Assembly (NCBI GenBank): GCA_965204375.1
Contig: OZ241986.1
Location: 2,560,001-2,624,000 of the forward strand
DNA from: Candidatus Latescibacterota bacterium
Lineage (GTDB): Bacteria; Latescibacterota; UBA2968
DNA length: 64,000 nt
Reading direction: 5' to 3'
The notes beneath the pieces were generated by a model. It ran no database searches, was not told the origin of the DNA, and saw only the letters and a program-made list of their open reading frames with translations. Position numbers and translations under genes: made by a program. Positions 33,307 to 46,485 of this stretch are shown here, piece after piece. Position 1 is the first letter of the stretch, and every line of letters begins with the position of its first letter.

Positions 33307-34092
33307 ATGTCCAATTATGAACGACTCATCGACATCATGGCGCGTTTGAGGGGACCTTCGGGCTGCCCGTGGGACAAAGAGCAAACGCACCAAAGTCTGA
33401 AACCCTACCTCATCGAAGAAGCCTATGAACTCCTCGATGCGATTGACCGCAATGACGATAGCGAAATCAAAGAAGAACTGGGCGACCTCTTGTTGCAAGT
33501 CGTCTTTCACGCGCAAATTGCCAGTGAAGAAAACCGATTTACCATAGACGATGTGGCCGAAGCCATCGCCGACAAACTCATCCGCCGCCATCCGCACGTT
33601 TTTGGCGACACACAAGCCGATACACCCGATGAAGTCATCAAAAATTGGGAAGCCATCAAAGCCGAAGAAAAACCCGACAAAAAAATCTCCCTACTCGACG
33701 GCGTACCGCAACATCTACCGGCATTATTGAAGGCGCGCAGACTTCAGGAAAAAGCTGCACGAGTGGGATTTGAATGGGAACACATTGCGGATGTGGCACA
33801 AAAAGTGCGGGAAGAAACAGAAGAATTAATGCGCGCACGAGAAACCGGCGCAACAGAAAAGATTCAAGAAGAATTTGGAGACTTGCTATTTGCCCTGGTC
33901 AATCTCGCTCGATTTCTCCAAATATGCCCCGAAGAAGCACTCATACAAACCAACAGAAAATTTCAATCGCGCTTTCAGTACATCGAAACCGAACTGTGCA
34001 AGCAGGGCAAAACACCCCATGAATCTACGCTTGAGGAAATGGACGCGCTTTGGGAAGCCGCGAAAAAAGAGAATCAGCCCCAAAAATCATAG
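33307..34092 (+). CDS. mazG: nucleoside triphosphate pyrophosphohydrolase
   Basis: GCPWDKEQTHQSL..IEEAYE, EELGDLLLQVVFH, RRHPHVF, EEFGDLLF. Confidence 0.96.
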   Translation: MSNYERLIDIMARLRGPSGCPWDKEQTHQSLKPYLIEEAYELLDAIDRNDDSEIKEELGDLLLQVVFHAQIASEENRFTIDDVAEAIADKLIRRHPHVFGDTQADTPDEVIKNWEAIKAEEKPDKKISLLDGVPQHLPALLKARRLQEKAARVGFEWEHIADVAQKVREETEELMRARETGATEKIQEEFGDLLFALVNLARFLQICPEEALIQTNRKFQSRFQYIETELCKQGKTPHESTLEEMDALWEAAKKENQPQKS

Positions 34093-34586
34093 TGCGCGGA
34101 CAATTCCAAAACGGGAATAGGAGCAGATTCCCAATCGTCAATCCAGCAAATAATGCTATCACAGGCCATATAATCGAGATTTTCGCGCTCGAAATCACTG
34201 CTGCGCAACACGACGTGCGCTCGAACCGGCAATTCATTACTCGACAGAATATAATTGGGAAAGGCCTCCTGGGATTTGAGCACCTCAAATCCCAATTTCT
34301 CATAAATTCGAATAAACAACTCGCGAACATTGGTCGCATTTCGCACAGCGGGATACGTCAAAATTGGTTCTCGATTGACAGGAGCCAATTGTTTTTCAAT
34401 GACATCAAGCGTGCTCTGGGGAACCGTAATTGATTTCGCATTTTTGCGCTCCAATTCAGCTTCGACCCGCTTGAGAGCCAACTCGGCTACCTCTTTGGAG
34501 TCGCTAATCGATTTGCGCACGCGCTTGCCATCTTCATCGTAGTACCCGATCCACCATTTCTTTCCCCGCTGATAAAGCCACGCCAT
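34074..34586 (-). CDS. hypothetical: integrase arm-binding-like N-terminus fused to a degenerate PD-(D/E)xK-like domain
   Basis: MAWLYQRGKKWWIGYYDEDGKRVRKS..KEVAE; C-terminal LGFE..FPN..SSDF..CDSIICWIDDW..VLEL; GGAG RBS. Confidence 0.65.
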   Translation of the reverse strand: MAWLYQRGKKWWIGYYDEDGKRVRKSISDSKEVAELALKRVEAELERKNAKSITVPQSTLDVIEKQLAPVNREPILTYPAVRNATNVRELFIRIYEKLGFEVLKSQEAFPNYILSSNELPVRAHVVLRSSDFERENLDYMACDSIICWIDDWESAPIPVLELSAHYDFWG

Positions 34587-34663
34587 AGTTGTGCTCCCGC
34601 TGCAAAACGTCAGTGTGTCTTACAGATAGCCACAAAAAATAAAAAAAACAATTACCTACTGAT

Positions 34664-34692
34664 ATTATACAATATACTGTGTATTTCTGCAA
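34664..34692 (-). promoter_or_regulatory. sigma-70 promoter of the 34586 gene
   Basis: TTGCAG-17 bp-TATAAT on the minus strand. Confidence 0.6.
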
Positions 34693-34815
34693 AAACAAAT
34701 CGCAATATATAGAGCAAAAAGAAAAAAATGTGGCTATTAGCCACAAATTGTCCATCAAATAATAATCTAAGCCACACTTTCAAGCAATAAAAAAGGCGGG
34801 CGTTTCAAGCCTGCC

Positions 34816-36219
34816 CATACGCATCAAGCTAAGTAAATGTCAAGGCCTCCAATTTCTGACAAGTATTGGGGGCTTTTCTTCTGGTATTGATCCGACATCC
34901 GTTCTCCAAACAGCGTTTTATGATGCGCAAGGCGTGCGCGGTCTGACTGAGCGAAGGGAGGGCACAGGCAACCAGCACAGCAAACGTTCTGACCGTCTGA
35001 GCAGCTTTAACCATTGATCGGTTGGGATATTTCCACAATGCGGTCAAAATAACCCAATGTTGGATGAGGATCCCAATAAGTTTGGCATACAATTCCGTCA
35101 GCACACGCCAGGGTTTTTGACTTTTGGATTTATCGACACGTCCCTGAGACTTCCACAGCTTGAAGAGTAGTTCAATCTGCCACCTAACACTGGCTAAAAC
35201 CTGTGCTTCCGCCAGCGAGATCAACTCGGGTGGTGCATTGGTGATTAAGAGGGTCCAATCACAAAGTGATAGTCGTATTTTTGAAAGCTGTGTTTTGTTC
35301 TTTCGCGCCTGCTCTTTAAGTTTGAAACGACGATGGCGAGCAACGCGTGATGCGACTGGCACAGCGATCAGCCGGGCAGGAAGGCGATGTTGGTCACCGA
35401 CTAAGACATTGCACTGAATCTGTCTATGGGGTTGGCTTTTCAAGAACTTGAGCACATCTAAAGGATCGCCAGTCCTATCCAACACCTTGACTTGTCCGTG
35501 CAAACGCGTCAGATAAAAACCACCCCCATCATCAATCCGACGCAAATCAGAAAGATTAAAATAGCCCAGGTCTGCCAAGCGTAATGCGCCTTTTTCAACC
35601 GGCAAAGCCTGCACACGGCTGGAACAGTCATGCGCTTTTGCCGGATAGATGAAAGGGCCTTCGAGTAAGCCTGATAGGTAATCTATACGCACTTGCAACT
35701 TCACCCCTGCCGCTTTACTGCCACCAGCAAAGAGATGATGCAAGGCATCGGGTAAAAAAATCGTCGTGCTATCTTGAATATAAACAGCACGAAAACGTCG
35801 CAATACGGGTAATCTCGTCTTGTCTCCACGGATCAGATGACTCACGCAGGCTTCCAATACTTGATACAGAAACGCGGCCGATTGTGGGCTGAATCGTTGA
35901 TCTAATCCTTGGGCTGAGATCCCAACACCCAAACTCGTGCATAACTGAGAAAGACGCTCTAAACTCGAATCGGGATCAGATAACCAGCCAAATACCAGCG
36001 ATTGCACAAACGCTGATCCGGTCAACTTCGACCGACGTTGGGTAAAGCCTGTCTTGTGTGCTACTTGATCCGCAGTCTGTGTTAAAACTGTTTGGAGACA
36101 TTGGGCAATTTGAGGTATCTTACACATTGAGGCAGTTCCTTGAGTATGTTTACTGTCTTGGACTACAGTAAGATACCTCGGGATCTGCCTCTTCTTCAAC
36201 CCTTAACTTGATGCGTATG
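34816..36219 (-). mobile_element. IS4-family insertion sequence, 1404 bp
   Basis: 18-bp terminal IRs CATACGCATCAAG(C/T)TAAG (34816-34833, 36202-36219); 20-bp flanking direct repeats (34796-34815, 36220-36239). Confidence 0.93.
34829..36127 (-). CDS. IS4 family DDE transposase
   Basis: IQDST, LADLGYF, RWQIELLFKLWKS; AGGA RBS before ATG 36127; stop lies inside the IR. Confidence 0.93.
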   Translation of the reverse strand: MCKIPQIAQCLQTVLTQTADQVAHKTGFTQRRSKLTGSAFVQSLVFGWLSDPDSSLERLSQLCTSLGVGISAQGLDQRFSPQSAAFLYQVLEACVSHLIRGDKTRLPVLRRFRAVYIQDSTTIFLPDALHHLFAGGSKAAGVKLQVRIDYLSGLLEGPFIYPAKAHDCSSRVQALPVEKGALRLADLGYFNLSDLRRIDDGGGFYLTRLHGQVKVLDRTGDPLDVLKFLKSQPHRQIQCNVLVGDQHRLPARLIAVPVASRVARHRRFKLKEQARKNKTQLSKIRLSLCDWTLLITNAPPELISLAEAQVLASVRWQIELLFKLWKSQGRVDKSKSQKPWRVLTELYAKLIGILIQHWVILTALWKYPNRSMVKAAQTVRTFAVLVACALPSLSQTAHALRIIKRCLENGCRINTRRKAPNTCQKLEALTFT

Positions 36220-36248
36220 GCGGGCGTTTCAAGCCTGCCTTATTACTG

Positions 36249-36390
36249 AACATCCCTGTTGTTGATCTGGATGATAATCAACTCGATACAGAATTTGGCT
36301 ATAAATGACGTGTTTCTGATTGCTGATTCCAGCCCACTCATTGCATTGGCGGGCGTGAACCGACTTAACCTATTGCCCAGATTGTATTAA
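36249..36390 (+). pseudogene. relic of a UPF0175 antitoxin 3' end and a DUF3368/PIN toxin 5' end
   Basis: NIPVVDLDDNQLDTEFGYK* then VFLIADSSPLIALAGVNRLNLLPRLY* (36310-36390). Confidence 0.6.
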
Positions 36391-36540
36391 TGAAAAAGGA
36401 ACGATAAAGGATATTGGCAAAGTGATCTATCACTCCAGAGGTGACTGGCGCACGCCAGGGGGCATTGCGTCAACGCCCGCGTCAAGATAGTTTTTCATCT
36501 CCTCAAGGCTTGCAGATCTGAAATATCCTTCCTGATACCA

Positions 36541-38031
36541 TCACCTGCTATTCAACGCGGTTTGATGCCACTCCTCTACGTTCATGGTCACACGATCACG
36601 TTTTCCCCACCAATAGCAATCTGCAACACACATAGAAATATCCAGAGTCTCATCGTCGATAAATCCGTGAATTTTCAACGTGTGAAACGCCTTCGAAGAC
36701 ACCGGCGCGGTATATACGGGCACCCAGAAGTCGTCGGTCCGCCCGCGAACGTATGTGGTTTGCTCACAATTGTAAACATTGGCGTGATCTTCATAGGTTA
36801 TCACTGCGACCATAAATCTGGAAGACTCGAAGCGCTGGACATCAAGGCTGGATGTAGTGTCCCATTGGGTAAAAGGCTCAATGCGTGCTATCCGGGAGAG
36901 CAGTGAGGAAAAGGTATCTATGTCCGGGTTGATGAAACGGGGTATTTCACGAACGACTTCATCCAACGTGGTAGAATATGCGTCTCTGACAGCACGGCCA
37001 ACGCACTGACACGGCAGGAAGTGACCACCCCACTCCCACGATGATTCGTCCTCCGAACAAAGAAACGTCGGCACGCTTCCCTCAAGCCAGGCGACGGTTT
37101 TCTGAATTATTCGCTTATTGGAATCGAAGTAAACAACTGAGGTAGTTCCAGGGTCGGTAGCACCGCCGTCCCAAGAGTGCATGACAATCTTCAACAAGCC
37201 GGTTTCGGGATCGAGACACGCACCCTCTATGTGATTCGAATGCAAGCCTCCATATAAGGCATCGATAAGGGCCCCATCATGGTAGAACTCAAGTCGCTGA
37301 CTTCCATCGGTAAAGATGCTACGCGGACTGCGCGTATTCTTGTAAAGGTCAATGTTAAAATGTCCATACTCTGAAGGCACCGCCCTGATCTTGATCCGAT
37401 CTGCTTTCAGGCTTTGGAAGAATGGTCCGGTAACAGTGAATTCGGAGTATCGGACAGGCGGCCCCCAGTCCACCGAGATGTCACTCACACCGATTGGCTG
37501 CGGGACCGCACGCGTCTCACGTGGTTTCGGACACAACTGTTCGACCGAATTGTATGCGGTCGTAAAGCCACGCAGGGAAAAGACGCCAGCCGAGGTGCTA
37601 TCAGAGTCGTTCCAGAGGACCATCTCGCCCTTCGTGGCTTCGCCCGCTATCATTTGGTTCACCACTCTTGTATGATCATAGTTTATCGAGGCCAGAGAAG
37701 TCACCCAGAAAGCCGGCGCCGAGTCGATCATTACGTGATAGCCATTGTCGGAAAAATCTGGCGTTACTCGGATCATGTCAGAAGACCGGCTGAGTGAACG
37801 GCTGGTCACCTGGAGGCGCACGTCACCGAGTCCGTTTTCCACCTCTCGCGGTGAGACCAACTTCGTCTCGGCGTAGCAGACGCGTAAATCGCCATCCTGA
37901 AGACGGTGGACGGACCAATCGTCGTAGATGCCCAACTGCTCTCGCGATTCCTGAGCGGTCAGTGGCGACACTACAACAGCCACTAAAAGGGCAAGCGTAG
38001 TGAGTGAAGCGGTAGTAAAGGGACCAAACAT
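36541..38031 (-). CDS. exported hypothetical protein with an IalB-like N-terminal domain
   Basis: Signal peptide (SPLTA-Q); YDDWSV..CYA...FSLRGFTTAY..C; GGAGG RBS. Confidence 0.7.
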   Translation of the reverse strand: MFGPFTTASLTTLALLVAVVVSPLTAQESREQLGIYDDWSVHRLQDGDLRVCYAETKLVSPREVENGLGDVRLQVTSRSLSRSSDMIRVTPDFSDNGYHVMIDSAPAFWVTSLASINYDHTRVVNQMIAGEATKGEMVLWNDSDSTSAGVFSLRGFTTAYNSVEQLCPKPRETRAVPQPIGVSDISVDWGPPVRYSEFTVTGPFFQSLKADRIKIRAVPSEYGHFNIDLYKNTRSPRSIFTDGSQRLEFYHDGALIDALYGGLHSNHIEGACLDPETGLLKIVMHSWDGGATDPGTTSVVYFDSNKRIIQKTVAWLEGSVPTFLCSEDESSWEWGGHFLPCQCVGRAVRDAYSTTLDEVVREIPRFINPDIDTFSSLLSRIARIEPFTQWDTTSSLDVQRFESSRFMVAVITYEDHANVYNCEQTTYVRGRTDDFWVPVYTAPVSSKAFHTLKIHGFIDDETLDISMCVADCYWWGKRDRVTMNVEEWHQTALNSR

Positions 38032-38103
38032 GCCTACCTCCAAAGGTTGGGACAACACCCGAGACGATCCGCCCCCCCGGATCTACGATCTCCCTTGCAC
38101 AAC

Positions 38104-38664
38104 CTATCGGATCTCCCGGTATGAACCGTAAACCCTGAGAGACCCTCTACCATCTTTGGCTACGACTTTTCCGAGGACACTTATGCAGGATCCATGATTG
38201 ACAACTCTGCCTACTATATCGAATCCGTTTTTGTTCACATTCTGCACTCCATTATAACTGGATCTGGAACTAATGGATGTTGCCTTTACCTTTATTGAAT
38301 TGACATCTATTTCCCATCCTTCGTCGGCACGGACCTCCCATCGGACATTCTTTGGACCTGCACAATGGTCATTGCGCTCATAATATGCAAGTTTCCTTTC
38401 TCTGGTTTGAGGTGCGATAACTTCCGGCGTGACGGGTTCTTCCGGCTCAGCACCTTGAGATCCGTCTTCCCCAAATTTAAAAATTTGAATACCTAATACG
38501 AAGATGACATACACACAGGTGATAGCTGTAACTCCTGCCAGGTACCTCCAAATTTTTTTAAGCCAATCAATCTTATCTTGCAGATTATGACATATACCAG
38601 CAAGGACTCCCAAAACAACGATTATACCCACCATTATGTCTATGTTCTCTATATTTTCCGTCAT
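38104..38664 (-). CDS. hypothetical membrane protein (2 TM, P/E linker, small Cys-paired beta domain)
   Basis: Two hydrophobic segments, EPEEPVTPE linker; start uncertain. Confidence 0.65.
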   Translation of the reverse strand: MTENIENIDIMVGIIVVLGVLAGICHNLQDKIDWLKKIWRYLAGVTAITCVYVIFVLGIQIFKFGEDGSQGAEPEEPVTPEVIAPQTRERKLAYYERNDHCAGPKNVRWEVRADEGWEIDVNSIKVKATSISSRSSYNGVQNVNKNGFDIVGRVVNHGSCISVLGKVVAKDGRGSLRVYGSYREIR

Positions 38665-39045
38665 AGTAGAGTTCCCCCGTTTTGGATGCTGTTGCCGAAT
38701 TCCGAATATGTCTCGATGCACTAAACATAGGGCTTACAGAGCCTGTATTCAGGCCACAAATATCCGTTTTTCCAACCGCAGATTCCCTCTCGAATAATTC
38801 GGTAACAGCATCGTTTTGGTAGAGTGTTTAAGATTTGGGTTTCAAGCCTGTGATTGATGCAGCTTGCCGTATAGAATCTCTTGGATTAAGACATTCCAGG
38901 GCAGGCTATTACGGCACATGAGGACATCGGCGCGTGGTAGGCGATTGAAGAATGCCTACGATGCGGATTATACCACCCTTCAATAAAACCTGAAAAACAC
39001 CACCCCCTTCCCTATAAAATGGACAAAAAGGTGAAGCCCAAAGGA

Positions 39046-39870
39046 TCAAAGATCCCGGGCAACTCGAAAACCGGAGCTGCGGGACCGAAAACCGGTGCTC
39101 CACAGGCCGCGCTCCGCAGAACGCAAGAACCACGGACCGTAGTACCAACAACCACCACGCACCACGCGCAAACCGCAGTCCTCAGACGTCCACGCAGACC
39201 CATCAGTAGGTGCGCCTTCATAGCTGTCATTATAGCAGTCTTGCACCCACTCCCCCACATTCCCGTGCATATCGTACACGCCCCAGGCATTGGCTACGAA
39301 AGATCCCACAGGTGCGGTCTGCTCATCATCCCACTGGCTGCCACAACCATCGCAATTGGCACGATTTTCACCTATGTTGTCTCCCCAGCTATACGCTGCC
39401 TCTGTGCCTGCCCGTGCCACATACTCCCATTCTGATTCACTCAATAAACGATAGGTTTTACCCGTCCGAGCAGACAACCAACCAACATAAGACTGGGCAT
39501 CTTCCCAACTCACATGGATCACAGGACGATTCCCGCGACCCCAGCGCATATCATCTGGAATATGGTTTCCACAACCTCCTGCATCCAGACAGGCGTACCA
39601 TTCGGAAAATGTCACCTCATATACGCCTACAGCAAACTGGTAATCTATACGCACCCTATGCAGCGGTTCTTCATCATCATCATGACCTGCCTCACCCATG
39701 GATGATCCCATCGTGAAAAATCCTGACGGCACGACAACCATCTTGGGACATTCAGCACAATCTTGAAAAGTCTCGCCAGGTGATGGCACGCTATCCCCGG
39801 TGTCCTGTTGTGACCAAAGGGGAAGGGTCAGAAGAATGAACACACCTATACAAATACAGTGACGATACAT
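39046..39870 (-). CDS. FGE-sulfatase (SUMF1/CLec-fold) domain exported protein, candidate DGR target
   Basis: DCAECPKMVVVPSG.F.MGS, RLLSESEWEYVARAGT, YDMHGNVGEW, RVVRGG..GFRVAR; signal peptide; AGGAG RBS. Confidence 0.9.
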   Translation of the reverse strand: MYRHCICIGVFILLTLPLWSQQDTGDSVPSPGETFQDCAECPKMVVVPSGFFTMGSSMGEAGHDDDEEPLHRVRIDYQFAVGVYEVTFSEWYACLDAGGCGNHIPDDMRWGRGNRPVIHVSWEDAQSYVGWLSARTGKTYRLLSESEWEYVARAGTEAAYSWGDNIGENRANCDGCGSQWDDEQTAPVGSFVANAWGVYDMHGNVGEWVQDCYNDSYEGAPTDGSAWTSEDCGLRVVRGGCWYYGPWFLRSAERGLWSTGFRSRSSGFRVARDL

Positions 39871-39928
39871 CTTGATCTCTCCTTTCATTAATTTTTACCT
39901 GCCATTATCTCTGGACATCATCTGGACC

Positions 39929-41059
39929 TCACCAGGCTCTTTCGACGATGATATGCGCTTTCGACCCGGCACCTCCACGATGACGCCAGACCTGCGTTTC
40001 CGTGTTCTCCCCGGTAACGCGGATCTCCCCTGTGTTTTCGTCTCGGTAGCTACAGTCCCCCTTGTATCCCGTGCCATTGATCGCTGTCAATTCCACTGCA
40101 TAGCTCTCGCCTGACCACACATTCAGCGTGTAGCAATCCCAGTCGTTGTCAATTTCTCCGGAAAATATGGTACTGCCATTTACATCGACGCTGATCTTAT
40201 CGCCATCTTCGCACTCGTGGTCCCGCACGCAAATTTTAAGGGTCCCCGTCGTGCCCTTAATTTTCATCGAAAAGTCCTGGATGGCCTGATCACTACTGCC
40301 GACCTGACCTCCGTAGGCATAAATGTGGTCCCTATAGTCCGCCACCCACATGGTCGTCCCGTCCGACCAGACCCCTGTGGGGGAGGTGTTTCCTGCAGCG
40401 AGATCGAAGTCCTTGTTCCGGTCACGAGCTTTGGATCTCATGTTGTAGGCATAAATTTTATGCCGATATCCGTCTGCTACCCACATGGTCGTCCCGTCTG
40501 ACCAGATCCCGTCAGTGCTTTGTGCTCCGGCGGCACTCAGCGTATTGAAGTCCTTGTTCGGATCATGGGCTTTAGATCTCATGTTGTAGGCATAAATCTT
40601 ATCGAATTGGTAAGCGCTGTCCATCACCCACAAGGTTGTCCCATCCGACCAGATCCCTTCAGGAACTCCGTTTCCTGAGGCGAGATAGAAGTCCTTGTCC
40701 GGGTCGCGCGCTCTGGTCCTCATGTTGTAGGCATAGATCCCACCGTCAGCATGATCTACCACCCACATAGTCGTTCCGTCCGACCAGATCCCTGCAGGGG
40801 ATTCGTTTCCGGCGGCTTTCAGCGTATTGAAGTCCCTGCCTGAATCACGGGCCTTGGTTCTCATGTTGTAGGCATAAATCTTGGCGCTCCTGTCTGCCAC
40901 CCACATGGTCGTCCCGTTCGACCAGATCCCTGTGGGATTTCTATTTCCTGAGGCGAGCTTCTCGAAGTCCCTGTCCGGGATGTGGGTCATGTCGCCAGTC
41001 GATGCCGGACCTGTCAATACAAATACCGAACAAATGATCAACATAATGCGGTTCCACAT
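39929..41059 (-). CDS. exported five-repeat beta-propeller-like protein with a Cys-containing C-terminal domain
   Basis: Signal peptide; five G(I/V)WS(D/N)GTT(M/L)WV.D..IYAY repeats; AGGAGG RBS. Confidence 0.85.
   Translation of the reverse strand: MWNRIMLIICSVFVLTGPASTGDMTHIPDRDFEKLASGNRNPTGIWSNGTTMWVADRSAKIYAYNMRTKARDSGRDFNTLKAAGNESPAGIWSDGTTMWVVDHADGGIYAYNMRTRARDPDKDFYLASGNGVPEGIWSDGTTLWVMDSAYQFDKIYAYNMRSKAHDPNKDFNTLSAAGAQSTDGIWSDGTTMWVADGYRHKIYAYNMRSKARDRNKDFDLAAGNTSPTGVWSDGTTMWVADYRDHIYAYGGQVGSSDQAIQDFSMKIKGTTGTLKICVRDHECEDGDKISVDVNGSTIFSGEIDNDWDCYTLNVWSGESYAVELTAINGTGYKGDCSYRDENTGEIRVTGENTETQVWRHRGGAGSKAHIIVERAW
40310..40975 (-). repeat. intragenic tandem repeats of about 135-150 bp
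   Basis: Recurrent catgttgtaggcata and gaccagatccc strings on the + strand. Confidence 0.85.
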
Positions 41060-41172
41060 AGATGCCTCCTCTGTAAGCTGTTTTAAAACTATGGTGAAGG
41101 AAAAAAGCTATTGAAAAAGCGTATCCATCTGTCCAATCATCGATCTGACGAGACTCAAAATCTAATTTATAA

Positions 41173-41188
41173 TGCAAAAAGTGTGCCA
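41173..41188 (-). promoter_or_regulatory. sigma-54 (-24/-12) promoter
   Basis: TGGCAC-ACTTT-TTGCA on the minus strand, with exact consensus spacing, about 115 bp upstream of 41059. Confidence 0.85.
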
Positions 41189-41244
41189 ATGTGAGTGCTA
41201 TCCCAAATCATTATATTCGTAAAGGGTTGTTTTATATGAAAAAA

Positions 41245-41294
41245 AGAGCCAATCTAACTATATAATATCGTCATAGGATAGTTGGATTGGCTCT
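41245..41294. repeat. 17-bp inverted repeat
   Basis: AGAGCCAATCTAACTAT-16 bp-ATAGTTGGATTGGCTCT (16/17 match). Confidence 0.8.
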
Positions 41295-41299
41295 GCCAT

Positions 41300-41357
41300 A
41301 AGACTTTACTTAGTCTTATAGAAGACGTATTATGGTCTCAGGACTATAGTACGTCCT
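41300..41357. promoter_or_regulatory. three tandem dyads, candidate enhancer (UAS) sites
   Basis: AAGAC-N8-GTCTT (41300), AAGAC-N8-GTCTC (41322), AGGAC-N8-GTCCT (41340). Confidence 0.65.
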
Positions 41358-41445
41358 TTTTTGTTTGCAAGTGTGAGATTCAATATTATGTTTTTATTTG
41401 CAAGTATGAGATTCTATTTTTTACCCATATCACAAGGTTCTTTCT

Positions 41446-44400
41446 ATGATCAAACCGCTTGAGCGCACGGGTACCTGGCAAACTTATTCTATGGCTGATG
41501 GCCTGGCCGGGATACGCACTGAACACATTGCCGAGGATAGCGAGGGCTATCTCTGGTTTGCCACATGGGACAATGGTGTTAGTTGCTTCGATGGCGACGA
41601 GTTCCAGACATTTACCCAACAGGACGGTCTTGTTAGTGATCGCGTTTATTTTATTCAAAAGGACAGCCAAGATCGGTTGTGGTTCGGTACATTAAATGGC
41701 GTCTGCTGGTACGACGGGGCAGATTTCCACCATCTGGAGGACGAGGGGATTGCAGGTCGTGCTGTGCAATTCATTTACGAAGATCATCAGGGTCGTATAT
41801 GGTGTGGTGGTCATCGCACTCTGGGATATTACGACGGCACGGTGTACCACGATTTGATTCCGCTCTACCTGCAAGACTACGAGCAGCCGCCTTCTCCTCA
41901 GTGGCCCAACCAGTGCCGGGGCATTGCCCAGGATCCGGAAGGCCATCTGTGGTTTGGTTTTAACTACCTCATCCGTTTCGACGGTCAATCCTTCCATCGC
42001 TATGAAGAGGGGTTTCCGCCACGCCTCCTGACGAGCTATGCCGTAGGACAGGACAATACCGGTAAGGTATGGATTGGTCAGCACGAACATCACCGCGAAC
42101 ATCAGAACGAACTCTGGTGCTATGTCGATGGTATCCCTCAGCCTGTTCAGGTAGATTGGAGTGGCACACTGCGCAAGATTCAGTGTGACGGTACAGGGCG
42201 GATGTGGTTTAGCACTTCAGACGGCGTGTTCTATCAGGACGGTGATGGGTTTAGCTGGTTTACCCCTGCCGATGGTCTGCCGAATTCCGCAGTTAAAGCT
42301 GTGTTCCAGGATCGCGGGCATCAGTATTGGTTTGCCACCTGGGGAGGCGTCGGGTTTTACGATGCGCATAGTATCAGCGTTTTCGACCCGAGTACAAACT
42401 TATCTCACGTAGCTAAAAGCAAGAGCGAGATCTCGCAGATCGTGCAAGACCGGCGAGGTGATATATGGGTCGGTTATGTAGCTCCCTTTCTCAACCGTCT
42501 GGAGAAAAGCGTTTTTCGCTTTGATGGGGAGAACTTTGCCTTTGTAGGTACCGAGGATGACTCTGATATCAACAACTGTTTTGCTATCTACGAGGACCGC
42601 GATAGGGACCTGTGGTTTGGGGGTCGCAATGGCCTATTCCGCTACGATGGGCAGAAGTTAAAAAAAATAGAAGAACCAAACGCAGGTTCAGGCAAAAGCA
42701 GTATTTGTGCAATTGCTCAGGATTCACAAGGACAAATGCTTCTCGGTCATTGGGAAAACGGCATCAAACAAAGAAGAAGAGACCTTCTTGTTAGTCCATT
42801 GAAGCTCAGTTATCAGCAAGGCGAGGAGTTCCAAACCATTTTTGTGGAACAGGAAGAGAAAGATCCTTTTAGCCGCATCGGCACTGTGATGCCCGGGCGC
42901 AACGGCGAATTTTATTTTCATCTATATCACCAAAATTTCTCTGACAATGACAAGGGTTTCGCGCGCTGGCATCCCGAAGACAAGCTCAAATTTTATGGGA
43001 TTGAAGACGGACTGATAGACGATAGGGTTACAGATCTGTTGTTAGGCCGCGATGGCAACCTGTGGGTGGCTACGCTGAGTGGTCTTTGTCGCTTTGATGG
43101 CAGCATCTTTCAGACCTTCACGACTGAAGACGGGTTGCCGAGCAACCGCATCCGTTGCTTGCTACAAGATCGGCGAGGCCACCTCTGGCTTGGCACAGAC
43201 GGAGGCGTAGCTCATTGCGATGGTCAGCTTTTCCAGACCATCAAGTCACCGCATATAGGACCGGTTTGCCAGATACTCGAAGATCGCGATGGCGCCTTCT
43301 GGTTCGGTACAGTCCAAAATTCTCTGGTGCGCTATCGGCAACAAAAAACGCCACCTCAGATTCGCCTGATTCAAGTGATTGCCGATGAGGTCTATGAGGA
43401 CCTGCAGGAAGACATTCTATCTAAGACAGACCAGAATGTGATTTTCGAGTACAAGGGCCTGAGTTTTTCCACACATCCCAGCGACATGCTCTACATCTAT
43501 CGCCTGAAGGGATACGACTCTGACTGGCAGCCTGCAACCCGAAAAATGCGGGCACATTACCGGGACTTGCCACCGGGAGACTACACCTTCCAGGTTCGGG
43601 CTATAGATCGCGACCTCAATTACTCAGAGATAGAACAGGCACGACTCTCGATAGTATCGGATCCTCGTATCGAAGCATTGACGAACGTCATCAACCGTCG
43701 AGGAAGCCAGAAGTTTATCGGGCATAGCCCAGCTCTGCGCCAGTTTCAAGTCAATCTTGAAAAAATTGCATCCACCAATATAACCGTGCTGATTCTGGGC
43801 GAGACAGGTGTGGGCAAGGGGCTGGCTGCTCGGATGCTACACGCGCTGAGTGCCCATAGTGATGGACCTTTTATAGAGATTAATTGCGGTGCATTGCCCG
43901 GAGCGTTGATCGATAGTGAACTGTTCGGTCACGAGAGAGGGGCTTTTACCAGCGCAATCTCCCAAAGACTGGGCAGAGTGGAACTGGCAGAGGATGGCAC
44001 GCTATTTTTAGATGAGGTCGGCGATATGGCCCTGGAAACGCAAGTCAAGCTGTTGCGTTTGCTGGAAGAGGGCACGTTTGAGCGCGTTGGGAGCAGTGAG
44101 ACGCGGAAGGCAAAGACGCGCATTGTAGCAGCGACCAATCGCGACTTAAAGGAGATGGTCAGTACAGGTGCTTTCCGGGAGGATCTGTATTATCGTCTCA
44201 ATGCCTTTCTGATGTATTTGCCGCCGCTTCGCGAGCGCAAGGAGGATATCCCTGAGTTGGCCGAGTATTTTAAAGATCGCCTATCAGGGCATATCGGCAA
44301 GCAAATAGACCCCTTGACACCAAAAATCATCAAGATATTGCAAGCCTACGATTGGCCTGGCAATGTGCGGGAGTTGGAGCACACCATACAGCGGGCTGTC

Positions 44401-44670
44401 ATCTTGTGTCCTGATTCTCAAATCGGAGTGGGAGATCTGGGACTGTATGTTTCTCGAATCGAAGATACGCAACGGGCCTTATCCGCTTCTCAAGCCCGCG
44501 AAATCGTGCCTTTGGATGAGCATGACCGCCGCTACATCCTCGACGTGCTCAAAGCCACGAGATATCAGATAAAAGGACCCGGTGGAGCAGCGTCACTGCT
44601 TGGGGTACCGCCTTCTACCCTGTATGGGAAAATGAAAAAACTGGGCATCAAAAATCGAAAATCAAAGTAG
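41446..44670 (+). CDS. sigma-54 enhancer-binding protein with N-terminal Reg_prop beta-propellers and a Y_Y_Y domain
   Basis: Repeated ED..G.LWF.T units; Y.YRLKGYD.DW..YRDLPPGDYTFQVRA; GETGVGK, ELFGHERGAFTSA, FLDEVG, WPGNVREL; HTH GAASLLGV..TLY. Confidence 0.93.
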   Translation: MIKPLERTGTWQTYSMADGLAGIRTEHIAEDSEGYLWFATWDNGVSCFDGDEFQTFTQQDGLVSDRVYFIQKDSQDRLWFGTLNGVCWYDGADFHHLEDEGIAGRAVQFIYEDHQGRIWCGGHRTLGYYDGTVYHDLIPLYLQDYEQPPSPQWPNQCRGIAQDPEGHLWFGFNYLIRFDGQSFHRYEEGFPPRLLTSYAVGQDNTGKVWIGQHEHHREHQNELWCYVDGIPQPVQVDWSGTLRKIQCDGTGRMWFSTSDGVFYQDGDGFSWFTPADGLPNSAVKAVFQDRGHQYWFATWGGVGFYDAHSISVFDPSTNLSHVAKSKSEISQIVQDRRGDIWVGYVAPFLNRLEKSVFRFDGENFAFVGTEDDSDINNCFAIYEDRDRDLWFGGRNGLFRYDGQKLKKIEEPNAGSGKSSICAIAQDSQGQMLLGHWENGIKQRRRDLLVSPLKLSYQQGEEFQTIFVEQEEKDPFSRIGTVMPGRNGEFYFHLYHQNFSDNDKGFARWHPEDKLKFYGIEDGLIDDRVTDLLLGRDGNLWVATLSGLCRFDGSIFQTFTTEDGLPSNRIRCLLQDRRGHLWLGTDGGVAHCDGQLFQTIKSPHIGPVCQILEDRDGAFWFGTVQNSLVRYRQQKTPPQIRLIQVIADEVYEDLQEDILSKTDQNVIFEYKGLSFSTHPSDMLYIYRLKGYDSDWQPATRKMRAHYRDLPPGDYTFQVRAIDRDLNYSEIEQARLSIVSDPRIEALTNVINRRGSQKFIGHSPALRQFQVNLEKIASTNITVLILGETGVGKGLAARMLHALSAHSDGPFIEINCGALPGALIDSELFGHERGAFTSAISQRLGRVELAEDGTLFLDEVGDMALETQVKLLRLLEEGTFERVGSSETRKAKTRIVAATNRDLKEMVSTGAFREDLYYRLNAFLMYLPPLRERKEDIPELAEYFKDRLSGHIGKQIDPLTPKIIKILQAYDWPGNVRELEHTIQRAVILCPDSQIGVGDLGLYVSRIEDTQRALSASQAREIVPLDEHDRRYILDVLKATRYQIKGPGGAASLLGVPPSTLYGKMKKLGIKNRKSK

Positions 44671-44671
44671 A

Positions 44672-45616
44672 TTATATATTATCGCGAATTTTTCTCCAAA
44701 CAGTCGCTGCGGCGTGGACATCCTGAATCGCCAGACCGCTCGAATACGCAATACATTCCTGTCCGCGCAAGTGTTCCAAATGTCCCAACGCCGCATGCCC
44801 GATATTTAATATCTCATCCCCCTCGCCTTTTACCCAGCGGGGCGTATCCTCTCTCGCGCGCAACGCGAGAAACTCGCCCGACTTCAGCACCTGCTCACCG
44901 TGATCAGGCACAACAAATCGCCGCGTCAACAATCCCGGATCCAATTGCGTGGAACGCCCATCGCCCCCAATCACAGAAATATGCACATGGCTTTCCACAT
45001 CGAATAAAATCGGCTCAGGCGTAGGCACAGAAGTAAAAATGGCATCTGCCCCATCAATACATGTCTCAATATCCGCGACCATCTCCAGATCACAGGAAAT
45101 ATCCGCTCCAACATCTACTTGATATGCCGCACGCCTCTCGGCCGTCCTGCTCGTTACACGTATGATCTCTGGCGCCAGAGCCACATCAATACACCTGCCC
45201 ATTGCCTGTGCAATACGCCCCGTCCCCAGAATTGCCGCCGTGCGCACGGGAGTCTTCGCCAAATACTTCGCGCCCAACGCACCCGCCGCACCCGTACGCA
45301 TATTGGTAATATACTCGGCATCAAACGAAATGCGGTCACCCCTCCGCACATCCTCCAATTCGATCACAGCGGTTCTCGAACCCAACCGCCCTATCTTGAC
45401 ATCCGAACGCTCTTCGATAACCTTTTGTCCCGTAAATCTCCCCTTCCACCAGCCCGGCATCACCAGACGAAAAAGATCTCCCTCGCGCGAAACCTCTTCT
45501 TTGCGCAGCGGATTGACCATCTTTCCGAGGCCATAAAGTCGAAACGCCTCGTCGCAACTCTCGACAAAATCTCGCGTTGTCATCACCGAAGCGATTTGCT
45601 CATCTGAAATATACAT
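44672..45616 (-). CDS. ornithine cyclodeaminase/mu-crystallin family
   Basis: ITNMRTGAAGA, ILGTGRIA, SSGLAIQD. Confidence 0.85.
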   Translation of the reverse strand: MYISDEQIASVMTTRDFVESCDEAFRLYGLGKMVNPLRKEEVSREGDLFRLVMPGWWKGRFTGQKVIEERSDVKIGRLGSRTAVIELEDVRRGDRISFDAEYITNMRTGAAGALGAKYLAKTPVRTAAILGTGRIAQAMGRCIDVALAPEIIRVTSRTAERRAAYQVDVGADISCDLEMVADIETCIDGADAIFTSVPTPEPILFDVESHVHISVIGGDGRSTQLDPGLLTRRFVVPDHGEQVLKSGEFLALRAREDTPRWVKGEGDEILNIGHAALGHLEHLRGQECIAYSSGLAIQDVHAAATVWRKIRDNI

Positions 45617-45780
45617 GTGTCATCTCCTGAATGGACGCTCAAATGATACCCAAGAGCGTTGACATTTGTTTTTGGTCGGTCTATTTTAATGCTACAGGGA
45701 TACAATGTAGTCAACTGAACTGGATGAGATTACTCGCACTCAAAACTGCCTCTCTAATCTTACTTCTTGGGGAGATTCTC

Positions 45781-46485
45781 ATGGCACAATCAACTCATGC
45801 TGATCGCCCAATGTACTCTATTTATCGCGCAGGCACACCAATTGTAATTGACGGGCGCCTAAATGAACCTGCATGGGTCGCAGCCCCAGACGTGGGAGCC
45901 TTTGTATTTCCGTGGTACGAAACGGGAAAAAAAGAACAAACCATAGCCAAAATGCTATGGGATGACAATTATTTATACGTCTCGTACATCTGTGAAGATG
46001 CACATATTTGGGCAGAACACACCGCGCGCGACTCCGACGTGTGGAAAGACGATACCGTAGAGGTATTCACAGCGCCCAATCCCGATCGGCCCCAGGCTTA
46101 TTTCAATATTGAAATGAACGTACTCGGCATCTTTCTCGACCAATTTCATCCACAAGGCCCAGACGCACCCGTACCCGGCGAGTGGAACGGCGAAGGCATC
46201 CAGATCAAAACGCAAATCGTCGGCACATTAAACGATGACAGCGACGAAGATGAATACTGGATATTGGAAGCCGCCATACCCTTTGCAAATTTTGCACACG
46301 TCGCCGTGCATACCCCTCCAAAAACAGGTGACATCTGGCACTTAAATCTAAATCGCCTGGGCGGAAAAACCAATGAGCAATTCAGCCAGTGGTCGGGCAG
46401 CCGCACGCCGCAACCGCAATTTCATTCACCAGATGATTTCGGGCGGGTAGTATTCTCGGATAAAACGAGTCCATTCTGGCGATAA
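45781..46485 (+). CDS. carbohydrate-binding family 9-like protein
   Basis: IDGRLNEPAW, LWDDNYLY, DD.VEVF, EAAIPF, WHLNLNR; GGAG RBS. Confidence 0.85.
   Translation: MAQSTHADRPMYSIYRAGTPIVIDGRLNEPAWVAAPDVGAFVFPWYETGKKEQTIAKMLWDDNYLYVSYICEDAHIWAEHTARDSDVWKDDTVEVFTAPNPDRPQAYFNIEMNVLGIFLDQFHPQGPDAPVPGEWNGEGIQIKTQIVGTLNDDSDEDEYWILEAAIPFANFAHVAVHTPPKTGDIWHLNLNRLGGKTNEQFSQWSGSRTPQPQFHSPDDFGRVVFSDKTSPFWR

Follow-up and report, generated by a model that had tools for sequence, protein, structure and literature searches.

Enhancer-binding proteins of the NtrC/NifA/NorR/XylR class carry an AAA+ sigma-54 interaction domain and a C-terminal Fis-type helix-turn-helix (HTH), act on an adjacent -24/-12 target promoter from two or three dyads located 100-200 bp upstream, across a bend in the DNA, and contact sigma-54 through a loop with the motif GAFTGA; a genome normally has few such activators, and their sensors differ from one to the next. 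Sensors of the Reg_prop/Y_Y_Y type are found in the hybrid two-component systems (HTCS) of Bacteroides (BT4663, 4A2L/4A2M; 3V9F; 3OTT/3VA6), which comprise many paralogues per genome, each beside the genes that it controls. Two further described systems share the fold of the formylglycine-generating enzymes (FGE), which themselves have a catalytic cysteine pair: PvdO (5HHA), a periplasmic FGE-fold protein without catalytic cysteines, and the targets of diversity-generating retroelements (DGRs), such as TvpA of Treponema (2Y3C), in which an FGE-sulfatase fold ends in a C-terminal variable region (VR). Here, these systems are compared with a locus of Candidatus Latescibacterota bacterium (assembly GCA_965204375.1, contig OZ241986.1, positions 2,560,001 to 2,624,000), lying in a stretch of 64,000 nucleotides that is called the window and to which coordinates refer unless genome positions are given. 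In this locus, an activator, its dyads and a sigma-54 promoter seem to form a switch that drives an exported unit of two proteins, one with a propeller and a domain named X and the other with an FGE fold, whose tail would have been written by a DGR that is now lost; a probability of about 0.7 is given to this overall reading. The main features of the locus are as follows:

41446..44670, plus strand: one-component sigma-54 enhancer-binding protein of 1074 aa (Pfam domains, hydropathy)
41364..41414, no strand assigned: direct repeat TTTGCAAGTRTGAGATTC in two copies at a distance of 33 bp, flanked by the dyads and the activator start
41302-41315, 41324-41337 and 41342-41355, no strand assigned: three GAC-N8-GTC dyads, predicted activator sites (motif scan, conservation)
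41245..41294, no strand assigned: inverted repeat lying between dyads and promoter, with arms of 10+6 bp, a loop of 16 nt and a T run behind it
41211..41236, minus strand: conserved A/T-rich block ATATAAAACAACCCTTTACGAATATA, candidate bend site, between the inverted repeat and the promoter
41188-41173, minus strand: sigma-54 promoter TGGCAC-N5-TTGCA (TGGCACACTTTTTGCA), exact consensus match
39929..41059, minus strand: predicted secreted protein of 376 aa with a signal peptide, a five-bladed propeller and domain X
39932-40297, minus strand: domain X, the C-terminal beta-sandwich of the 376-aa protein (residues 255-376, 122 residues)
39046..39888, minus strand: predicted secreted protein of 280 aa with a signal peptide and an FGE-sulfatase (C-type-lectin-like, CLec) fold (Pfam E 1e-55)
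39056..39169, minus strand: putative orphan DGR-type VR, at the 3' end of the FGE-fold gene

The activator couples a sensor half (residues 1-~740), formed by a double propeller of many Reg_prop repeats (Pfam E 3.6e-46) and a Y_Y_Y domain (residues 677-737), to a Sigma54_activat domain (PF00158; residues 758-921, E 1.4e-64), which is followed by AAA_lid_14 and by HTH_8 at residues 1024-1066. This architecture was already claimed in a preliminary description of the same DNA and is confirmed by the Pfam domains of the 1074-aa protein; the AAA+ motifs include the Walker A GETGVGKG and LFLDE at residue 853. By sequence, the sensor half is homologous to the solved HTCS sensors (3V9F, E 1.1e-36; 4A2L, E 1.9e-33), and the best solved matches to the AAA+ half are NifA, FleQ, NtrC and ZraR. 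No hydrophobic segment reaches 1.6 in a 19-residue Kyte-Doolittle scan (the maximum is 1.15), and no receiver, HisKA/HATPase or AraC-type domain appears among the Pfam matches. Since it lacks both a hydrophobic segment and a receiver domain, the protein is predicted to be a soluble, one-component regulator with a cytoplasmic sensor and, because of this location, the sensor would be unable to read an external glycan directly. Thus, unlike the classical enhancer-binding proteins, this activator has a double propeller plus Y_Y_Y of ~740 residues in place of receiver, GAF, V4R or PAS domains, while, unlike the HTCS, it has no signal peptide or transmembrane segment, kinase, receiver or AraC domain, its output passes through sigma-54, and the cargo of its family consists of repeat or binding proteins instead of glycoside hydrolases and SusC/D.

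The genome, a single contig of 6.34 Mb, contains an rpoN gene, on which the initial proposal depended. Sigma-54 promoters follow a -24/-12 consensus, and exact matches to the form used here, TGGCAC-N5-TTGCW, occur once in the window (TGGCACACTTTTTGCA) and 39 times in the genome. The TGG of the window promoter lies 258 bp from the activator start, on the opposite strand; both this divergent, exactly spaced promoter and the three dyads upstream of its predicted start had been described beforehand and were recovered at the positions given above. From the promoter position, a transcript start is predicted near 41162, which would leave a leader of ~100 nt with AGGAGG ahead of the ATG at 41059, and the dyad centres lie ~147, 169 and 187 bp upstream of this predicted start, with AGACC-N6-GGTCT as the family consensus. 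Among the sequencing runs searched for 38900-42400, no RNA run was found to contain the locus; two runs contain most of its sequence words, and the shares in the other runs, labelled for instance as marine or sponge metagenome, are 0.19-0.40, which bears on neither habitat nor expression. The motif GAC-N8-GTC alone is not enriched in the window, since 10 occurrences were observed versus 12.3 expected by chance. Adjacent dyad pairs 15-25 bp apart occur four times genome-wide, three of them in the control regions of this locus or its paralogue, and dyads together with the inverted-repeat box are found at only two promoters in the genome, namely that of this locus and that of a 70%-identical paralogue at genome position 4,085,032, whose dyads are of the same type.

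The remaining elements of the control region are less readily assigned. The direct repeats TTTGCAAGTRTGAGATTC are kept in most divergent control regions and are possibly the activator's own promoter or an autoregulatory site. The inverted repeat at 41245-41294 has a z of -5.5 with 16 paired positions and, across 27 control regions, 96.8% of cells are paired, with compensatory change in two pairs only; such pair counts are too invariant to tell a structure from a symmetric protein site. The repeat may serve as a site for another protein or may be what is left of a terminator behind the activator gene, and an Rfam scan of 36000-45000 gave nothing near the gathering score. As for the A/T-rich block ATATAAAACAACCCTTTACGAATATA, we take it, provisionally, to resemble a site for integration host factor.

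Homologous activators had been expected to carry a -24/-12 promoter and dyads in the same arrangement. The sample comprised 74 distinct full-length activator genes, taken from the loci around the listed homologues plus five named loci, and a sigma-54-like site had to lie within 450 bp of the activator gene and to retain GG and GC, with one mismatch at most. Such a site lies at a stereotyped place in 61 of the 74, versus a chance expectation of ~0.008 per zone. The positions are distributed as follows:

Divergent-only promoter, 22 of 74: mostly 258-300 bp upstream of the activator start (range 232-380)
Tandem-only promoter, 35 of 74: 164-385 bp past the stop, same strand
Both promoter positions, 4 of 74
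No promoter site, 12 of 74: mostly adjacent activator pairs
Flank too short for scoring, 1 of 74

The expectation of a promoter at a fixed distance is thereby borne out, although the divergent layout, which does recur in homologues, proves to be one of two layouts, the tandem one being the sole arrangement in 35. The dyads also keep fixed offsets, as GAC-N8-GTC lies at -166 to -126 from the TGG in 22 of 27 distinct divergent control regions, 21 of which have two or more dyads. The whole control region of ~280 bp can be aligned between paralogues of different loci and genomes, in the order activator start, two direct repeats, two or three dyads, inverted repeat with T run, A/T block and promoter. 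In tandem regions, GAC-N8-GTC at -160 to -125 is found in only 6 of 39; the others have palindromes round an ATATAT-like core (GTCG..CGAC, CCATATATGG, AGACGTTATAACGTCT and GCGATATATCGC), and one arm of the inverted repeat (AAGAGCCAGTCTGA-like) is found again in control regions of this type. The type of palindrome goes along with changes in the HTH region of the activator next to it, which, in a qualitative reading without a statistical test, suggests that operator half-sites and regulators diversify together.

With regard to the distribution of the family, the host genome has two activator paralogues at 70% identity, and one related genome has at least nine full-length copies among the matches listed, each with its own control region, unlike the classical enhancer-binding proteins. 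Within the phylum, 52 of 168 scanned genomes gave an activator match at E <= 1e-150; at the same threshold, the family is absent from 5 of 20 congeners. When the sensor was used to query a large protein collection, 8000 candidates were scored, of which 5812 reached E <= 1e-10, and nearly all of the best 120 of these 5812 add a Sigma54_activat domain, two short entries being without it. Where the best sensor matches have a source name, it is no more specific than 'sigma 54-interacting transcriptional regulator' or 'AAA domain-containing protein'. Most likely, the locus belongs to a family of self-contained sigma-54 switches, expanded in a single Latescibacterota lineage.

The first gene behind the promoter encodes the 376-aa protein, whose propeller consists of five 45-aa repeats (GIWSDGTTMWV..KIYAYNMR) at ~residues 25-250. 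In an AlphaFold model, these repeats form a five-bladed propeller (block pLDDT 73-91), with the best structural overlap with five-bladed glutaminyl cyclases (target TM 0.72 for 3NOL and 0.69 for 2IWA). An alignment of 12 homologues places most invariant columns in the repeat motifs modelled as strands and leaves the stretches between them variable, so that the repeat propeller with variable loops of the preliminary description is corroborated by alignment and model alike. In the same alignment, domain X is nearly invariant. This domain matched no Pfam model and is present in 243 representative clusters at E <= 0.001; modelled alone, it folds as a nine-strand beta-sandwich (pLDDT 93.8), for which a Foldseek search against the PDB returned no match at E <= 0.001. 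A likeness to the calcium-dependent carbohydrate-binding module 2XHH, the best VIA-align hit (Z 7.2), was rejected as lying within the noise band of the tool, and the best ESM Atlas matches (0.86), which led to unnamed clusters only, were not used. Domain X is thus called only a beta-sandwich, on the basis of its model, with no convincing solved relative.

The second gene starts 40 bp after the propeller gene, or 58 bp if the start of the homologues is adopted, in agreement with the 40-60 bp noted beforehand. Its 280-aa product has PvdO (5HHA) as its closest solved relative over the full length (residues 29-280 to 21-286, E 3.9e-57) and also matches TvpA (2Y3C, E 5e-11). The two genes recur as a pair: each of the 12 retrieved loci that contain a full-length propeller homologue has an FGE-fold gene as its direct neighbour, in the same orientation. 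In 10 of the 12, one of them truncated, this gene comes after the propeller; the order is reversed in L148 and with the full-length propeller copy of L139, where the downstream order holds only for the promoter-proximal propeller fragment. A sigma-54 site is present upstream in 10 of the 12 propeller loci and an adjacent activator, in either orientation, in 7. Moreover, domain X is fused directly N-terminal to an FGE-sulfatase domain in P0126 and P0137 (two of nine library proteins scanned), and these fusions are the best evidence that the propeller and FGE-fold products work as one unit. Complex prediction with residues 30-280 of the FGE-fold protein and domain X gave a score of 0.02, which speaks neither for nor against binding. 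Most likely, judging from the fusions in other organisms, the two proteins would form a two-part envelope binder.

The tail of the FGE-fold protein, described initially as VR-like, has the anatomy of a DGR variable region: its scaffold codons are frozen, and the codons lying between them, often NNC or NNT, are hypervariable. In a comparison of 10 homologues, the first and second codon positions differ at 0.43 and 0.36 in the tail versus 0.12 and 0.10 in the body, and the third about equally in both (0.26 versus 0.23); among 14 homologues, the invariant scaffold codons of the tail differ at 0.119 versus 0.412 for comparable body codons. A complete canonical DGR with a homologous FGE-fold target, including an accessory gene, a reverse transcriptase (RT) and a template repeat (TR), is found in a congener:

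L198:1-2487 (congener G017): FGE-fold gene with VR at 660-773, bAvd, RT of 375 aa, TR at 2374-2487

In this DGR, all 17 of the 17 mismatches between TR and VR are at adenines. The bearer, G017, is one of the five congeners without the activator family. Aligned with the L198 TR over 114 nt, the window tail is 65% identical and is changed at 26 of 33 A positions versus 14 of 81 others (p 9e-10), whereas the same adenine test on the gene body gives no bias (21 of 68 versus 78 of 268, p 0.77). The last 17 bases of the L198 TR are identical in the window tail, whose 3' end also matches the end of the G017 VR. With TvpA and L198, the tail shares the R.GG..P..LRSA.R...GFRVAR scaffold, the variable codons rich in NNC/NNT and the same 3' end. 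Unlike in these DGR systems, neither the vicinity of the FGE-fold gene nor the rest of the genome contains an accessory gene, a TR or a DGR RT, and the gene stands behind a sigma-54 switch with a propeller-domain X protein as its partner.

Beyond the FGE-fold gene, and on the other side of the activator, the surroundings of the locus contain the following features:

38104-38721, minus strand: 205-aa protein with two transmembrane segments
36541-38058, minus strand: 505-aa protein with an N-terminal hydrophobic segment
34829-36199: insertion sequence (IS) with DDE_Tnp_1 (Pfam)
34074-34586, minus strand: 170-aa open reading frame (ORF) between MazG and the IS, at the island edge
44672-46485: ornithine-cyclodeaminase-like gene (minus strand) and CBM9-like gene (plus strand), after the activator

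The loci of G015 and G008 have both flanks of the window, MazG on one side and the ornithine-cyclodeaminase-like and CBM9-like genes on the other, but different genes in the position of the 205-aa/505-aa pair. The ornithine-cyclodeaminase-like and CBM9-like genes, as shared neighbours of the orthologous activators, fix the chromosomal position of the switch. At its cargo end, the locus forms a variable island, which ends here in the IS. At the far end of the orthologous island of G015, a 145-aa fragment of a group II intron RT is present (L139:7077-7514), so that different mobile elements landed at the same spot, an IS in the window and the intron RT fragment in G015; the latter had been considered as a DGR lead on account of its RVT_1 match and was rejected, its best match being a group II intron RT. 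The IS claimed at the far end is real. No Pfam match was obtained for the small ORFs at 34025-34758, including that at 34074-34586, in support of the 'TA relic' and the 'integrase-derived gene' proposed there, although the first ~50 residues of the latter ORF resemble, by eye, the arm-type N-terminus of a phage integrase. For the 505-aa protein, a DUF1176 lead (ESM Atlas 0.84 and 0.82) fell below the 0.9 mark and was not used.

Several observations weigh against the overall reading, and they bear on rival explanations of its parts. Regarding the switch, the sigma-54 contact loop at residue 832 reads GAFTSA and not the canonical GAFTGA, a further departure from the classical enhancer-binding proteins; among the 74 homologues, 37 have GAFTSA, 16 GAFTGA, 2 GAFTTA and 1 GSFTSA, and 18 were missed by the pattern. 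The 12 homologues without a promoter site, which are mostly paired adjacent activators, also count on this side. In addition, cross-talk between the activator and the 70%-identical paralogue is possible, and cis-specificity is not proven because both have one dyad type. Regarding the tail, the genome has no DGR RT, its only two RVT_1 genes being of the group II intron type (Intron_maturas2, HNH), and no A-rich copy of a template repeat was found in it when the FGE tail or the L198 TR was used as a query, the best other matches to the tail being A-poor tails of paralogues at 70-76% identity. Similarly, RVT_1 matches occur in only 9 of 21 congeners and are absent in five that bear the cassette (G006, G007, G008, G013 and G018), and the third positions corresponding to the AAY codons of the L198 TR are changed in 5 of 11 cases in the window tail, for which reason that TR is not the template of the tail. 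Selection could, moreover, yield part of the tail pattern. All these points on the tail would suit ordinary diversifying selection or gene conversion between paralogues, with a DGR never involved. This explanation is nonetheless doubtful, as it fails on the scaffold codons of the tail, ~3.5 times more conserved synonymously than the rest of the gene, on the adenine bias relative to a real congeneric TR with an unbiased body control, and on the 3' end shared with that TR and the G017 VR. The opposite explanation, in which the cassette is a currently active DGR target diversified in trans by an unassembled plasmid, phage or region, could draw on a scaffold and 3' end preserved at the nucleotide level, on a genome completeness of 96% and on a second VR-like tail at genome ~327 kb, and is nevertheless very improbable: no DGR RT or TR was found in a single-contig genome, decay is suggested by the 14 mismatches outside adenines to the one related TR that is known, and a scan of viral contigs with the 17-base scaffold end returned one chance match, to an unrelated phage gene with no TR-like context. 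Since neither a DGR RT nor an A-rich template copy was found in the genome, the FGE gene is not an active DGR target here, and its diversification is past or comes from elsewhere; the earlier term 'DGR-type target' thus stands as regards the family and the anatomy of the sequence and falls as regards a DGR RT and template repeat in the genome. The tail is probably an orphan VR written by a related, now absent DGR, as judged from its substitution pattern.

The function and extent of the exported unit have to be weighed in a similar way. The FGE-fold protein and domain X could belong to a periplasmic enzyme system, for PvdO-like oxidation or another maturation, with the propeller recognising the substrate. 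The full-length likeness to PvdO, which NCBIfam names as an enzyme, and the strong conservation of the protein body speak for such a system and against a binding role. It seems unlikely, however, because the score for NF051459 ('dihydropyoverdine dehydrogenase', PvdO), 224.7 bits, is below the cut-off of 500, no pyoverdine genes were seen beside the locus, the catalytic cysteine pair of FGE is absent (..LCHDSYC.. of 6MUJ aligns with WYYGPWFL), and the hypervariable C-terminal face, which PvdO does not have, is typical of the ligand-binding variable proteins of DGRs, among which TvpA is matched. A different question is whether all four co-oriented genes constitute one sigma-54 operon of envelope binders, as the preliminary description implied with its cassette of four. 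The genes do lie on the same strand, with gaps of 40 bp within the first pair and 45 bp within the 205-aa/505-aa pair, and all four products (376, 280, 205 and 505 aa) have signal-like or transmembrane segments, as claimed. A single operon is nevertheless quite improbable, given the gap of 324 bp, with a sigma-70-like match (10/12), that separates the two pairs, the other genes found at this place in the positional orthologues of G015 and G008, and the rarity of the distal genes, of which the one for 505 aa was found in 2 of 40 other genomes and the one for 205 aa in 4 of the 40, never beside an activator. The conserved cargo consists of the first two genes only, the propeller-X and FGE-fold pair; the IS and the two distal genes (205 aa and 505 aa) are specific to the strain and lie outside the conserved module.

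In the mechanism favoured here, that of a sigma-54 switch driving the propeller-X and FGE-fold unit, an intracellular ligand would bind the propeller/Y_Y_Y sensor and free the AAA+ domain, upon which dimers bound through HTH_8 to the three AGAC-N8-GTCT dyads would assemble into an active oligomer or ring. The DNA between the dyads and the promoter would bend at the A/T block, at the inverted repeat or at both, allowing the oligomer to remodel the sigma-54 holoenzyme at TGGCAC-N5-TTGCA, with the start near 41162. The output would be a Sec-exported propeller-X protein and an exported PvdO-like FGE-fold protein, which may associate via domain X and the FGE fold, displaying two variable surfaces, one formed by the loops of the propeller and the other by the tail of the lectin fold, probably with a binding rather than an enzymatic role. 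The hypervariable C-terminal face of the FGE fold would have been written by the lost DGR. A wider proposal is that the family works as a plug-in platform, in which dozens of paralogous cytoplasmic sensors, each with its own operator code, command different exported repeat proteins (LRR-dockerin, cadherin, and propeller-X plus CLec), and in which the CLec partner is still competent for homing, given a scaffold frozen at synonymous sites and a 3' end that matches the congeneric TR/VR. This proposal, including its list of outputs and the homing competence, is distinctly unlikely; if it were true, a DGR on a mobile element could rewrite the binding face of the CLec protein, which would amount to a regulated, re-diversifiable form of surface recognition.

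The design of the switch is classical, and its novelty resides in the sensor, in the scale of paralogue expansion with matching operators, in the pairing of domain X with an FGE fold, and in an orphan VR under sigma-54; the literature searched contained no description of a Reg_prop/Y_Y_Y sigma-54 activator or of the module. A sugar-sensor fold of the HTCS type appears here in the cytoplasm, joined to an AAA+ domain and multiplied together with a control region of ~280 bp whose half-sites have diversified, so that the family would represent a natural set of orthogonal activator/promoter pairs. Through it, one can also approach the regulation of secreted LRR, cadherin, propeller and lectin-fold proteins in a phylum that is uncultured. 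Furthermore, the locus links a sigma-54 switch, a beta-sandwich domain that partners with FGE folds and DGR-type variable regions outlasting their retroelement, which had not previously been connected.

Exported cargo had also been anticipated behind homologous switches. The 65 promoter entries of the family gave 47 distinct first ORFs of at least 100 aa, and 17 entries, mostly at locus edges, gave none. Of these ORFs, 28 were passed to Pfam after removal of those under ~200 aa (likely miscalls), five propeller homologues, one activator and two near-duplicates. Nine of the 28 contain leucine-rich repeats (LRR), three dockerin, and two each cadherin, fn3 and CarboxypepD_reg domains; GPP34, P450, multicopper oxidase and others occur as single cases. 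A DFDGDG-type (dockerin/EF-hand-like) motif was seen by eye mostly in members of the LRR group, and most of the N-termini listed resemble, also by eye, signal peptides. The anticipation therefore holds for most of these genes, and the family seems mainly to drive exported repeat or binding proteins. The GPP34 (Golgi phosphoprotein 3) case is a first gene behind a paralogous switch (L168:1627-3594), and its product has 655 aa. LRR, NHL, FN3 and other 'eukaryotic-like' repeat proteins are reported in 10 of 10 metagenome-assembled genomes of sponge-associated Latescibacterota (PMC12993501), and GPP34 has been linked to sponge symbiosis in Actinobacteriota (PMC11706023).

Some traces of the switch and of its cargo lie elsewhere in the genome. 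About 15 kb past the right end of the window, a second identical TGGCACACTTTTTGCA promoter is present (L014:9086, genome 2,639,085), with ~55 bp of homologous flank and without dyads, beside an inverted 43-codon fragment of the activator N-terminus (L014:9238-9366, genome 2,639,237-2,639,365) and upstream of DUF1800, sulfatase and ferric-reductase-like genes; it looks like a rearranged relic of another switch. At L016:5734-7572 (genome 325,733-327,571), a 612-aa Ser/Thr-kinase-like protein has a C-terminal FGE-fold part that is 70% identical to the window protein and bears an A-poor VR-like tail, a second putative orphan VR; its gene stands in a row of four kinase paralogues and an apparent PP2C-type phosphatase, the latter recognised by eye. 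A third FGE-fold paralogue, 51% identical and located after an HlyD-like gene (L015:9490-11201, genome 1,815,489-1,817,200), lies behind an exact sigma-54 promoter at genome 1,817,199 with no adjoining propeller-type activator, and is followed downstream by DUF6785/DUF6784 and two very large genes.

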